Shown: piece after piece, positions 1,415 to 4,271 of the stretch | How the letters are laid out: each line of letters begins with the position of its first letter | How positions within the stretch are numbered: the stretch's first letter is position 1 | Virus record (IMG/VR): IMGVR_UViG_3300001529_000023 | Location: 1 to 11,654 of that record | Reading direction: 5' to 3' (one strand) | Source: a virus | DNA: 11,654 nucleotides | Translations under genes and position numbers: made by a program | The notes under the pieces: model-generated | Database searches by the model: none | Seen by the model: the letters and a program-made list of their open reading frames with translations, nothing else | What the model was told of the DNA's origin: nothing

Positions 1415-1957
1415 TCATTTGTTTTTCTCCTTATATTTTTCAATATCTTTAATAATTTGTTCGATACTTACTGGTGTACAATTATGAGCATCTACCGCTA
1501 CATTATAAATACTATATTGCCCAAATTCAAATTTATTAGGGCTATGAGTATGTCCAGATAAATTCCAAAAGAAGCGTTCATCTTCAAAATTGCTTACAAA
1601 AGTAGGATAATGAGAAAGAAAAAATGCTTTTCTTTTATTGTATTTATATATTGAAGCGAAACCAAGATACGTCATATTATATTCTGTTTGATATTTATTA
1701 AGTTTATTTTTTGTATCATGGTTTCCCCAAATAACAATTTTTTCTCCATTTAATACTTTATAAACCCTGTTCCATTCCTTTTCATTTCCGCTCATACAAA
1801 GGTCGCCAAGAATGTATACAGTATCTTCTGGAGTAACAACACTATTCCATCTTTTAATAATTTCAGTATCATGTTCTTCTATTGAAGAGAAGCCGCGCGG
1901 CCGCCAAATAAAATCTTTGTCATGGCCGATATGAAGGTCAGATGTAAAATAAATCAT
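1415..1957 (-). CDS. Calcineurin-like metallophosphoesterase (candidate 2',3'/3'-phosphatase of an RNA-repair module)
   Basis: Metallophosphatase motifs are present in order: SDLHIGH (DxH), ILGDL (GDxxD), GNHD, GHTH. The stop is TGA. The start overlaps or abuts the upstream kinase stop (1957/1959). Confidence 0.85.
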   Translation of the reverse strand: MIYFTSDLHIGHDKDFIWRPRGFSSIEEHDTEIIKRWNSVVTPEDTVYILGDLCMSGNEKEWNRVYKVLNGEKIVIWGNHDTKNKLNKYQTEYNMTYLGFASIYKYNKRKAFFLSHYPTFVSNFEDERFFWNLSGHTHSPNKFEFGQYSIYNVAVDAHNCTPVSIEQIIKDIEKYKEKNK

Positions 1958-1958
1958 A

Positions 1959-2450
1959 TTATTTCCTTTCTAAGAGATTCATATTTATTCCATCAAAAGT
2001 ATAGATATAATCAAATGGCTCATTATAAGTAGGAGGCTCTAGTCTAGTATACATATTATGAATTTCATGCGGTGGTACATAGGCCAAAGTGCCTTTTCTA
2101 GTATCATTACGAGATAGACAAATCTCAAGAGGAATTTTAAAGTAAATTCCTATTATTATTGTTTTTGTCCTATCAATATGTAGAGCATGAAAAAGTTTGT
2201 AACGGCTTTTTAAATTTAAATGGGTGGCGTCCGCGATAACATCTTTTCCTTCTGCAATGTTTTCATTAATTTGTCGAATAAACTCTTTATAGACTTGTTT
2301 TTCTTTAGAAAAATAATTGTCTTTTTTATCAATCAATGAAAATCTAATATTGTCTCTTGAGACATGGGTTATTCCTAATAAATTCTTTTTAGCAAGGGTA
2401 GTTTTGCCTGAGCCAGGAATACCCATGAAAACATACAAAATATTTTTCAT
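1959..2450 (-). CDS. Polynucleotide 5'-kinase, T4 Pnk kinase-domain-like (AAA_33 / P-loop)
   Basis: Walker A motif GIPGSGKTT. The C-terminal segment LSRNDTRKGTLAYVPPHEIHNMY closely parallels T4 Pnk [21 protein letters not shown]. The stop is TAA. Confidence 0.8.
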   Translation of the reverse strand: MKNILYVFMGIPGSGKTTLAKKNLLGITHVSRDNIRFSLIDKKDNYFSKEKQVYKEFIRQINENIAEGKDVIADATHLNLKSRYKLFHALHIDRTKTIIIGIYFKIPLEICLSRNDTRKGTLAYVPPHEIHNMYTRLEPPTYNEPFDYIYTFDGINMNLLERK

Positions 2451-2453
2451 AAT

Positions 2454-3011
2454 TTATCTCTGCCAATCAATCCAATCGTAAGGAATAGTTTGATTTTGTT
2501 CAGGAGTATACCAACGTCCTGAGCGACTTCTTATCTGCCATCTTTTTTCTGCGGTGCTATATCTTTCATTACGTGTTTCTAAGGTAGTTCCAAAGATATA
2601 ACGAATACTATTATCTTTATTTAGCTTTAAAGAAATCAATTTTCTCGCAGGGCCTCTACTTACATAAAAATCACTGGTAATAAGCTGTCCCGTATAACTT
2701 TCATATGCATACCAACGATTGCCGCCATCTCGCAATCTAATTTTACCCTGTGTTAAACTGCCTCTTGGAGAACCAGGAATACTTGTTTTATGTCCGTAAT
2801 ACCAATGGCCTTCAAACTTAAAGTATCCGGTCATAAGTTTTCCATGTTTAAAAATATAAAGATTTCCTGATTCATCTCCGATGATTCCGTGGACAGGCTG
2901 CCGCTCTTTCATTTGTTCAAAAGTTACTCCAGTTTTCAAGCTATCCTTAGCATAAACTGGATTTGCCATTAATACAATAGCAATGAAAAAAATAGTAAAA
3001 AGTTTTTTCAT
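2454..3011 (-). CDS. Secreted protein with clostridial-type cell-wall-binding (choline-binding-like) repeats
   Basis: N-terminal signal peptide MKKLFTIFFIAIVLMANPVYA. Degenerate GxxxTGYFKFEGHWYY / NRWYAYESYTGQL repeats are typical of CW_binding repeats. The stop is TAA. Confidence 0.6.
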   Translation of the reverse strand: MKKLFTIFFIAIVLMANPVYAKDSLKTGVTFEQMKERQPVHGIIGDESGNLYIFKHGKLMTGYFKFEGHWYYGHKTSIPGSPRGSLTQGKIRLRDGGNRWYAYESYTGQLITSDFYVSRGPARKLISLKLNKDNSIRYIFGTTLETRNERYSTAEKRWQIRSRSGRWYTPEQNQTIPYDWIDWQR

Positions 3012-3044
3012 AATATTTACTCCTTTATTTTATATTTTATATTT

Positions 3045-4271
3045 TTACTGATGAAACTTCAGCAAGAACTCATTAGATACTGCCTTAAAAGATTGTACTC
3101 CATCTTCTGAGCGGAAAACAATACCTTCGCGCATATCTCCGTCTACCTGAGAAGCATCGGTTGCGTATTCTAGCAACTCGTCAACAGTATCGGGCAGAAT
3201 GAATTTGCTATTGATAACTGGTACGCAAGGAATCCGGTAATAATCTTCAAGCAACTCTCTCATTTTAAGAGTATTGAATCTACCCTTATCAGATGTAATT
3301 AGGTTAAATGCCATAAAATCATGTCCATTTAGATGATAATCTCTCTTTTGTACTCCTGCGCCGTAAGTTTCTCCCTGAATTGTAATCCATTCTGCTTCAG
3401 GGAACAAACTCAACATTTCAGTTAGAACATGTTCAATATGGTATTTCTCTGCCATCTCGGTATAGATGTTAGTTTCATAAAAACAAGTTTTGTCAGGCTT
3501 GTCAAAACAAACGTTTCGAGAGCAAACGTAGAACTCATTTTTATGAGGCCATTTTCCTCTTTTGATAGTGAAAGTAGTTGAAGAACCATCAATCTTTTCG
3601 GTTGCAATCCAAGGGTCCTTATTCTGAAGAATCCAAGGCATATTCTGTACTCTTTCTTCATCAGTTTTCTTTACCCAGGCAGGCCAACCAGTTTTATCCC
3701 TTTTCTTTCCAAAGAAAATGAAAAGAAGTTTCTTTCCCCATTCCCGTTTCATAAGCCAGCGGAAAGGCTGTTTTGCAAAAAGTTTACCATGACGCTGAGC
3801 CATTTTCTTATACTTATCTGCGGAAGGGGCTTTGCGGGCGTTATCTTCTGCTACATAGTAAGTTACCCCAAGCTGTTTAGTGAGGAAACGAGATTCATCG
3901 TCTACCCGGTGCAAAGAGCAGTCCTTATGAGGAGTTCCAATTCTAATGGTTTTCTCATCTATGATTGCTCCATTGAAATTTGCGGCAGACATAAGAAGTC
4001 CCTGAGAAACAGACTTACACATTCTCTGCGTCTTAATCTTATATTTCTTTTTTGCAAGGAACTCCATATTAGTAAAAGGTTCTACTTCAGGCAGCTTAGA
4101 ATCAATTTCAAAATAAATTGCAGGGTCGCCCGCCTTAAACTCTCCCTTTCCAACAACGATAGTCCATCCGCCTACATGGGCAAGTTCTACTCTATCATAT
4201 CCTTCGATAGGAGTAATATCGTCAATAATTACAACATAAGCAAGTTCTCTTTCGTTATTTGCATTAAGCAT
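3045..4271 (-). CDS. ATP-dependent RNA ligase (Rnl family, DRB0094/TIGR02306-like)
   Basis: Nucleotidyltransferase motif I TEKIDGSS (KxDG lysine), a GETYGAGVQK-type motif, EGIVFR (motif IV) and a downstream SFKAV lysine. The N-terminal region is of the GYDRVE...GW.IVVGKGEFK..D..IYFEIDS type. The stop is TAA. Confidence 0.75.
   Translation of the reverse strand: MLNANNERELAYVVIIDDITPIEGYDRVELAHVGGWTIVVGKGEFKAGDPAIYFEIDSKLPEVEPFTNMEFLAKKKYKIKTQRMCKSVSQGLLMSAANFNGAIIDEKTIRIGTPHKDCSLHRVDDESRFLTKQLGVTYYVAEDNARKAPSADKYKKMAQRHGKLFAKQPFRWLMKREWGKKLLFIFFGKKRDKTGWPAWVKKTDEERVQNMPWILQNKDPWIATEKIDGSSTTFTIKRGKWPHKNEFYVCSRNVCFDKPDKTCFYETNIYTEMAEKYHIEHVLTEMLSLFPEAEWITIQGETYGAGVQKRDYHLNGHDFMAFNLITSDKGRFNTLKMRELLEDYYRIPCVPVINSKFILPDTVDELLEYATDASQVDGDMREGIVFRSEDGVQSFKAVSNEFLLKFHQ

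Follow-up and report, generated by a model that had tools for sequence, protein, structure and literature searches.

A candidate split RNA repair module linking an Rnl5-family ligase to a polynucleotide kinase and a metallophosphoesterase in a TAG-recoded phage

The 11,654-nucleotide (nt) stretch of viral DNA analysed here (positions 1 to 11,654 of IMG/VR record IMGVR_UViG_3300001529_000023; hereafter the window) is AT-rich, with 25-40% GC, and carries a co-oriented run of minus-strand genes spanning positions 8060 down to ~590. Within this run, where the original prediction had placed them, lie minus-strand genes for an Rnl5-family (DraRnl/NgrRnl-type) ATP-dependent RNA ligase of 408 amino acids (aa) (4271..3045), a stand-alone P-loop kinase of the polynucleotide kinase clade (2450..1959; 163 aa) and a binuclear metallophosphoesterase of the aq_1665-like subfamily (1957..1415; 180 aa). 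The three had also been described as nearly contiguous, which is incorrect: a fourth co-oriented open reading frame (ORF), encoding a 185-aa signal-peptide protein (3011..2454), separates ligase and kinase. The gaps from ligase to signal-peptide gene to kinase to phosphoesterase are 33, 3 and 1 nt. All four ORFs begin with ATG and end with TAA or TGA, never TAG, and a purine-rich ribosome-binding sequence is clear for three of them and less clear upstream of the kinase. Two strong terminator-like hairpins at 4971..4936 and 619..591 of the minus strand, identified by consensus scan only, bracket a probable transcription unit (4971..591, minus strand) containing p58, p86, p56, the ligase, the signal-peptide gene, the kinase, the phosphoesterase, p140 and a holin. 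Since that scan found no strong internal terminator on the minus strand between 4971 and 591, the genes of the putative module are, judging by the hairpins and the gene spacing, likely to be co-transcribed. A whole-window megablast gave no match to GenBank phages and the element is known only from metagenomes; its source is a TAG-recoded phage of ~120-140 kb from gut or rumen samples, probably with a Firmicutes host.

The ligase matches two Pfam domains, the PHA02142 N-terminal OB domain (PF21189, 1.1e-18, aa 11-94) and RNA_ligase (PF09414, 1.2e-20, aa 219-398), and aligns end to end with the phrog_968 'RNA ligase' family (6e-65). It also matches NCBIfam TIGR02306 (RNA_lig_DRB0094, the Deinococcus model; 4.5e-33) with a score of 114.6 bits, under the equivalog cut-off of 151.15; it represents a diverged phage branch of Rnl5 (phrog_968) and is no TIGR02306 equivalog. 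Its sole solved relatives are the Naegleria gruberi RNA ligase (NgrRnl) structures (5cot, 1.5e-30), with which it aligns through both domains to residue 405 of 408. On this alignment the N-terminal OB domain occupies aa 8-99 (4250..3975, minus strand) and the nucleotidyltransferase (NTase) domain aa 196-405 (3686..3057, minus strand). The segment between them (aa 100-195; 3974..3687, minus strand) adds ~60 largely basic residues relative to NgrRnl and the Deinococcus radiodurans enzyme DraRnl, which otherwise share the domain organisation and active site of the window ligase; this basic insert is common to the phage PHA02142/phrog_968 branch. An N-terminal OB domain plus NTase domain without a C-terminal appendage is the signature of Rnl5 (PMC4408790), and because the window ligase has exactly this architecture we assign it, by sequence, to the nick-sealing family of DraRnl and NgrRnl. 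A T4 Rnl1-type ligase was considered and rejected, there being no Rnl1 match in Pfam, NCBIfam or the PDB; the one further ligase signal was a weak match to Rnl2.

The catalytic motifs of the ligase are intact. Motif I (EKIDGSS, 3599..3579) places K226 and D228 at NgrRnl K170 and D172, motif III (QGE, 3377..3369) places E301 at E227, motif IV (EGIVFR, 3128..3111) places E382 at E312, and motif V (SFKAV, 3092..3078) places K396 at K326, all on the minus strand, while R8, D57, T203 and R207 correspond to R4, D53, T145 and R149. With residue roles taken from the NgrRnl work (PMC7261155), eight of the nine ATP- or metal-contacting residues of that enzyme are aligned in the window ligase, plus T145, and the ninth, K121, falls in the unalignable insert. 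These nine window residues (R8, D57, T203, R207, K226, D228, E301, E382 and K396) do not vary across 70 aligned family members taken from related loci, and K226 is the predicted adenylylated lysine. The KxDG lysine on which the original prediction had based its Rnl-type assignment is therefore kept on alignment, together with the rest of the NgrRnl active site.

The kinase matches AAA_33 (2.3e-16) and also KTI12 in Pfam, as well as the phrog_505 polynucleotide kinase family (4.7e-19); its best NCBIfam match is the PSTK model TIGR03574 (3.2e-12). Its motifs follow in the order GIPGSGKT, SRDNIR and then RNDTRKGTLAYVPPHEIHNMY. The first is the P-loop (G10-T17; 2423..2400, minus strand), the second (S31-R36; 2360..2343, minus strand) holds the predicted general base D33 together with R36, and the lid RNDTRKG...VP...MY (2111..2049, minus strand) supplies the lid arginines R114-R118. 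The tail had been given as RNxxRG...VP...MY; its RNxxR, VP and MY elements are as described and only the spacing needs correction, to RNxxRxG. Searched as a single sequence, the kinase matched in the PDB first the Clostridium thermocellum Pnkp (CthPnkp) kinase domain, then PSTK and Pnkp1. A family profile built from 44 homologues matched CthPnkp (2e-17), Pnkp1 (3e-15), PSTK (6e-15), T4 Pnk (2e-14) and mammalian PNKP (2e-10); the PDB matches of this profile are limited to polynucleotide or tRNA kinases, with no small-molecule kinase above them. When this profile was aligned by hhalign to T4 Pnk (the sequence used being 100% identical to record X03007), the probability was 98.9% and the E value 3.8e-17. 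GIPGSGKT aligns to T4 GCPGSGKS (K15/S16), SRDNIR to NRDDYR (D35, R38), D74 to D85, and RNDTRKG..VP..MY to RNSKRG..VP..MY (R122, R126). Because these T4-matched residues are present, and invariant in 57 relatives from the loci, we find no reason to place the protein in an unrelated NTP-kinase family. Family matches, T4 alignment and profile matches agree on a Pnk-type kinase, and the P-loop, RDxxR, lid RNxxR and closest solved relatives are those of the 5'-OH polynucleotide kinase clade. A T4-type kinase-HAD fusion was also considered and rejected, since the 163-aa protein is the kinase domain alone; Pfam searches of ten window ORFs gave no HAD-domain match.

The phosphoesterase matches Metallophos (2.3e-8) and phrog_547 (3.3e-46), and with these matches all three proposed domain assignments (AAA_33/PNK, Metallophos and RNA_ligase) held up in profile searches. 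The five binuclear metallophosphoesterase motifs are all present on the minus strand and are invariant or nearly so in relatives: DxH (D7, H9; 1945..1922), GD (G51-D52; 1810..1799), GNHD (G78-N79-H80-D81; 1726..1715), H116 (1618..1604) and GHTH (G135-H136-x-H138; 1555..1544). The AlphaFold model is confident (pLDDT 94.3) and has the beta-sandwich metallophosphoesterase fold, and the protein belongs to the binuclear (calcineurin-like) superfamily. Within that superfamily it is closer to aq_1665 of Aquifex aeolicus (PDB 1XM7) than to 4j6o, and a Pnkp/lambda-phosphatase-type assignment was replaced by an aq_1665-like one. The enzyme is thus of the calcineurin type, as the original prediction held, and its likeness to bacterial Pnkp is true at the superfamily level only. 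No function has been assigned to aq_1665, and the match is therefore silent on the substrate of the phage enzyme, which cannot be read off homology; NCBIfam adds a weak PdeM match. The protein is predicted, from linkage and fusion to the kinase only, to be a 2',3'-cyclic/3'-phosphate end-healing enzyme.

Conservation of gene order was examined at loci collected from IMG/VR with the ligase, 80 in number at 59-99% identity (L001 being the source contig), in which kinase and phosphoesterase were sought by tblastn with the window proteins. Both are encoded on the ligase strand in 66 of the 80 loci, and in 62 the order is ligase-kinase-phosphoesterase, with the pair downstream of the ligase. The gap from kinase to phosphoesterase is mostly 5-50 nt, though both proteins fall to 34-45% identity. 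The 80 ligases form 45 clusters at 90% identity, and for 35 of these the pair lies inside the fetched locus. An independent scan of GTDB genome bins yielded 16 loci in metagenome-assembled genomes (MAGs) from gut and rumen, binned mostly as Clostridia or Bacilli; ten have the same gene order, with ligase identities down to 44%. This arrangement is far beyond chance.

The kinase and phosphoesterase also occur as single polypeptides. An exhaustive profile search was made with the phosphoesterase family, and among the best 150 cluster representatives, which were inspected, five are fusions of 341-348 aa in which an AAA_33/KTI12 kinase at the N terminus is followed by a phosphoesterase of the aq_1665-like subfamily at the C terminus. 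One of the five, P0248 (L092:6001-7044; 347 aa), was read at the DNA level and shares 42% identity with the kinase and 47% with the phosphoesterase of the window. Because its ORF is uninterrupted in the standard code, P0248 is not a read-through artefact of a recoded stop. Conserved synteny and genuine fusions, both read from sequence, support a functional link between ligase, kinase and phosphoesterase.

The genes present, their intact catalytic residues, their conserved order and the occurrence of fusions are direct observations, and we consider it probable that the three proteins constitute a split heal-and-seal RNA repair module. In such a module the metallophosphoesterase would open and remove a 2',3'-cyclic phosphate or 3'-phosphate to leave a 3'-OH, the kinase would move the gamma-phosphate of an NTP onto the 5'-OH, and the Rnl5 ligase, through lysyl-AMP (at K226) and an AppRNA intermediate, would join the resulting 3'-OH and 5'-PO4 ends, most probably where a duplex or stem context holds the break together. 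We infer each of these activities, as well as RNA rather than DNA as their substrate and the identity of any nuclease that is countered. Comparative genomics has found such sets in jumbo phages, where polynucleotide kinases and phosphoesterases accompany ATP-dependent RNA ligases; most of these phosphoesterases are HAD proteins and a minority are calcineurin-like or HD proteins (PMC7824862).

The logic is that of bacteriophage T4, whose Pnkp and Rnl1 counter the PrrC anticodon nuclease with the same phage-encoded combination of kinase, 3'-phosphoesterase and ATP-dependent ligase, and to this extent 'T4-style', the label first given to the locus, is apt. It does not extend to the proteins themselves. 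The window kinase is a homologue of the kinase domain of T4 Pnk, matching it at all the residues listed above, but stands alone, without the HAD (DxDxT) domain, so that the metallophosphoesterase is the candidate for 3' end healing; and whereas T4 Rnl1 has a C-terminal tRNA-specificity domain, the window ligase is Rnl5, without a Pfam match to Rnl1. The T4 repair genes are not adjacent.

Two bacterial systems, Clostridium thermocellum Pnkp-Hen1 and Capnocytophaga gingivalis Pnkp1-Rnl-Hen1, contain the enzyme classes found in the window, supply the best PDB matches of the window kinase (the CthPnkp kinase domain and Pnkp1) and, in the case of Pnkp1-Rnl-Hen1, likewise have the ligase on its own polypeptide. 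In the phage, however, the activities are on three polypeptides, the ligase is Rnl5 and not Rnl4, and Pfam and NCBIfam scans detected no Hen1 methyltransferase in the window. The bacterial Pnkp model TIGR04075 was matched in its kinase part only, at 36 bits against a cut-off of 750. We therefore rejected a bacterial Pnkp-Hen1 system on the grounds of separate proteins, an aq_1665-like phosphoesterase, an Rnl5 ligase and no Hen1. The DraRnl gene has a DEDDh-like exonuclease gene as its partner, in place of the kinase and phosphoesterase genes seen here (PMC5397189). In the HD-Pnk system of Runella slithyformis, a kinase of the Pnk clade coupled to a metal-dependent 2',3'-phosphoesterase does have a ligase gene immediately upstream (PMC6097658). 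Similarly, in Bacillus phage PBC2 the Rnl5-type ligase gp157, with the PF21189 plus PF09414 architecture of the window ligase, is immediately upstream of the kinase-HD fusion gp158. In both Runella and PBC2 the phosphoesterase is an HD domain fused to the kinase, whereas that of the window is a separate metallophosphoesterase.

Partial versions of the arrangement occur in other cultured phages. Pnk is found near an RNA ligase in Pseudomonas phage Milchi, a phosphoesterase of the present subfamily directly follows the kinase in Vibrio phage Ceto and its relatives, and kinase and phosphoesterase are one gene apart in Sinorhizobium phage phiN3. The Ceto 'RNA ligase/tail attachment protein' was rejected as an example of Rnl5, since it matches no Pfam family and BLASTP finds no similarity between it and the window ligase. 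The window kinase also matched PHROG kinase fusions with HAD phosphatase, with NinI-like phosphatase and with ligase.

That phages repair RNA with a ligase, a kinase and a phosphoesterase is established; phage RNA repair is a classic counter-defence that has been worked out for few enzyme combinations. What is distinct here is the Rnl5 ligase, the aq_1665-like phosphoesterase, the split organisation and the occurrence elsewhere of kinase-phosphoesterase fusions; across a large family of gut and rumen phages Rnl5 is repeatedly linked to the kinase and the aq_1665-like phosphoesterase. The cluster reveals no new principle and is better viewed as a lead for two enzyme families, Rnl5 and aq_1665-like, with roles to be defined. 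It predicts that Rnl5 acts downstream of end healing, that the aq_1665-type metallophosphoesterase is an RNA 2',3'-phosphate esterase, and that the fused kinase and phosphoesterase represent a Pnkp of new bifunctional architecture.

Several observations weigh against a repair module of this kind. The kinase-phosphoesterase pair is absent from 14 of the 80 loci; several of these are truncated, others truly have no pair within 10 kb, and two (L045 and L046) keep the phosphoesterase without the kinase. The L092 fusion has no Rnl5 gene within 6 kb and adjoins gyrase and DNA ligase genes. The aq_1665-like subfamily has no characterised member, and the nearest characterised structural neighbours of the phosphoesterase are LpxH (a lipid pyrophosphatase) and the nucleases Pseudomonas putida MPE and Mre11/SbcD, not the Pnkp phosphatase. 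Its phrog_547 subfamily is moreover widespread, with 1619 cultured-phage records, usually without an adjacent ligase. As for the ligase, Rnl5 seals 3'-OH/5'-PO4 nicks in duplexes in which RNA is the 3'-OH strand (PMC4408790). The two Rnl5 enzymes studied, DraRnl and NgrRnl, seal nicked duplexes, and their physiological RNA substrate is not known (PMC5397189, PMC4408790); the demonstrated substrate is thus a nicked duplex and not an anticodon-loop break. The sole DraRnl phenotype concerns DNA, namely delayed genome reassembly in the recovery from irradiation, and the physiological function of Rnl5 has been called 'uncharted' (PMC5397189).

In the chief alternative, a reading that we regard as unlikely, the cluster is an accessory to DNA-end or RNA-DNA junction repair or to replication. 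Here kinase and phosphoesterase would clean the 5'-OH and 3'-phosphate ends of DNA nicks, as mammalian PNKP does, or trim those ends as a nuclease would, and Rnl5 would seal nicks with ribonucleotides at the end of the 3'-OH strand, for instance at RNA patches or primers in phage DNA. The DraRnl phenotype favours this reading, as does the tolerance of Rnl5 for DNA in the 5'-PO4 and template strands (PMC5397189, PMC4408790). So do the match of the kinase profile to mammalian PNKP, a DNA repair enzyme, and, for the phosphoesterase, the neighbourhood of Mre11/SbcD and of P. putida MPE, which belongs to a nucleic-acid repair cluster, along with the weak PdeM match. Genomic context adds to this. 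In the near-identical contigs L086-L089, which extend past the left end of the window, a holin, a 490-aa endolysin with GH25 and CHAP domains and gyrase B and A are followed by a second metallophosphoesterase (190 aa) and an NAD-dependent DNA ligase (LigA), with gyrase, second metallophosphoesterase and LigA 2-9 kb from the module, and the L092 fusion directly adjoins gyrase and LigA without an Rnl5 gene. Against it, Rnl5 strictly requires an RNA 3'-OH, a dedicated DNA ligase is already encoded separately by the phage, and the closest cultured-phage kinases sit in annotated pairs of Pnkp and RNA ligase. Neighbouring genes in relatives likewise point to RNA. Thg1-like proteins (PF04446, 1.2e-30), associated with tRNA 5'-end repair, are encoded at ten loci, in L080 between ligase and kinase; a cREC 'cyclic-phosphate processing receiver' domain (PF20274, 7.3e-17) occurs at nine, in L049 directly after the ligase; and tRNA arrays lie within 10 kb in at least seven. 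Other neighbours in relatives are an extra lambda-phosphatase-like metallophosphoesterase in L029 and L065 and a DUF5662 protein. Genes of these repair-type kinds were recorded at L080:3215-4003, L073:15289-16080, L049:11300-11611 and L029:11831-12592.

It is also conceivable, but in our view decidedly improbable, that no common pathway unites these neighbouring genes. The phosphoesterase might then, for example, degrade a nucleotide second messenger used by host immunity, dephosphorylate proteins or serve as a nuclease, the substrate of the kinase would be a small molecule or nucleotide, and the ligase would work alone. The accessory regions of large phages are mosaic, as the inserted signal-peptide gene itself illustrates; the phosphoesterase subfamily is found in over 1600 genomes of cultured phages, most of which have neither ligase nor kinase nearby; and, as noted, some relatives have a ligase but no pair, or a phosphoesterase but no kinase. 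Such independence would not account for an order kept over deep divergence in two collections, nor for genuine fusions of kinase and phosphoesterase. The kinase profile, for its part, matches polynucleotide or tRNA kinases only, and searches with PADLOC and for anti-defence genes gave insignificant matches only.

The segment 8217..11123 of the plus strand is one frame of 968 codons containing 19 in-frame TAG codons, without internal TAA or TGA, and ending with TAA. The GH25 endolysin gene at the left end of the window (<590, minus strand) has one in-frame TAG, and TAG is the stop codon of none of the 11 minus-strand genes inspected. The late genes are genuinely TAG-recoded. In diverged relatives the TAG positions align with Glu (29), Asp (16) and Gln (8), and in an empirical substitution-likelihood test Glu gave the best log likelihood (lnL -237, against -278 for Asp and -292 for Gln). 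Since the aligned residues are mostly acidic and Glu ranks best, TAG may be read as an acidic residue and not as the usual Gln, the relatives on which this comparison draws being few and non-independent.

The original prediction had the late genes probably depending on a suppressor tRNA. Its recoding half is confirmed by these codons; the tRNA was not found, there being no tRNA gene in the window itself or, in four near-identical contigs (13-20 kb loci), within ~10 kb. One relative, L067, does encode a tRNA of 87 nt that has a long variable arm and the amber-reading anticodon CTA (L067:3079-3165), inside a 13-tRNA array ~7 kb upstream of the ligase, at a locus without the kinase-phosphoesterase pair. 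The gain in ORF coverage, used over the 80 loci as a score for TAG or TGA recoding, proved too noisy in AT-rich sequence, and we therefore claim no association between recoding and the module. Plausible targets of the module are the amber suppressor and tRNAs cleaved by anticodon nucleases. A particular tie to the suppressor is something we only infer, because no tRNA lies near the module and related modules occur in standard-code cultured phages as well; some support for it comes solely from the Thg1-like genes and tRNA arrays of relatives. The most specific version of the repair reading, which we hold as quite doubtful, would give the Rnl5 ligases a definite physiological role, that of sealing healed tRNA breaks during infection within a phage 'tRNA maintenance island' and so protecting phage tRNAs including an amber suppressor, with the aq_1665-type enzymes a new family for RNA 2',3'-phosphate end healing. 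Were it true, translation of the late and lysis genes of a TAG-recoded lineage would depend on tRNAs protected in this way; the cluster does mark recoded phages, and their dependence on phage tRNAs could raise the importance of RNA repair.

Recoding has a further bearing, on a PSTK-like role in which the kinase would act on the Ser-tRNA of an amber suppressor with the phosphoesterase as its antagonist, tying the pair to TAG decoding: the best NCBIfam match and high-ranking PDB matches to PSTK, the TAG-recoded late genes with TAG mostly opposite acidic residues, and the long-armed CTA tRNA of L067 are all in keeping with it, but the kinase profile fits Pnkp kinases better, the 163-aa protein is without the C-terminal tRNA-binding domain that PSTK possesses, the pair or a kinase-HD fusion is present in standard-code cultured phages, linkage to an RNA ligase is left unexplained and no suppressor tRNA lies near the module, so that we give it hardly any credence.

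The remaining genes around the module are less easily placed. The signal-peptide protein (3011..2454) has an N-terminal signal peptide (MKKLFTIFFIAIVLMANPVYA) and W/Y/G-rich repeats; it has no Pfam, PHROG, NCBIfam or PADLOC match, only a faint and insignificant similarity to choline-binding repeats (E 0.42). Its gene is confined, among the 80 IMG/VR loci, to L001 and, at 31% identity, L006, and in the closest other relatives ligase and kinase are 55-62 nt apart; for these reasons it is probably a recent lineage-specific insert outside the repair module, possibly a moron gene. Conversely, at 47 more distant loci (within L012-L080) an ORF of ~100 aa with a CxxC...CxxC zinc ribbon (for example L012:11323-11631) lies immediately upstream of the kinase. 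It is seen in MAG contigs too, belongs to no Pfam family and is missing from the window; it could be a fourth module component since lost from this lineage. Two small minus-strand ORFs without a family match, p86 upstream of the ligase (4437..4697; 86 aa) and p140 just downstream of the phosphoesterase (893..1315; 140 aa), are found in the same places in many relatives, with 29-60% identity, and may be accessory to the module. In two of the contigs that extend past the left end of the window, L087 and L089, insertions of GIY-YIG homing endonucleases split the gyrase genes.

Finally, the 829-aa protein encoded upstream of the ligase at 4979..7468 (minus strand) is homologous to the eukaryotic Major Vault Protein (MVP) over most of its length. 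Pfam matches are MVP_shoulder (2.5e-23) and Vault_3 (2.8e-8), with a weak match to Band_7, and residues 327-788 align to residues 330-810 of rat and human MVP (E 5e-14). A near full-length vault-protein homologue is unusual for a phage, and the vault-like gene upstream of the ligase is kept in many related phage loci and in MAG contigs. At loci where it is absent, SPFH/Band_7 (stomatin/prohibitin-like) proteins recur directly beside the Rnl5 ligase, and they are also found in Sinorhizobium phage phiN3, close to its kinase and phosphoesterase; SPFH/Band_7 genes were recorded at L070:11399-12301, L073:12892-13782, L055:6430-7377, L065:11256-12203 and L091:5809-6834. Because the vault shoulder domain resembles SPFH domains, the vault-like and SPFH genes may represent one recurring association.

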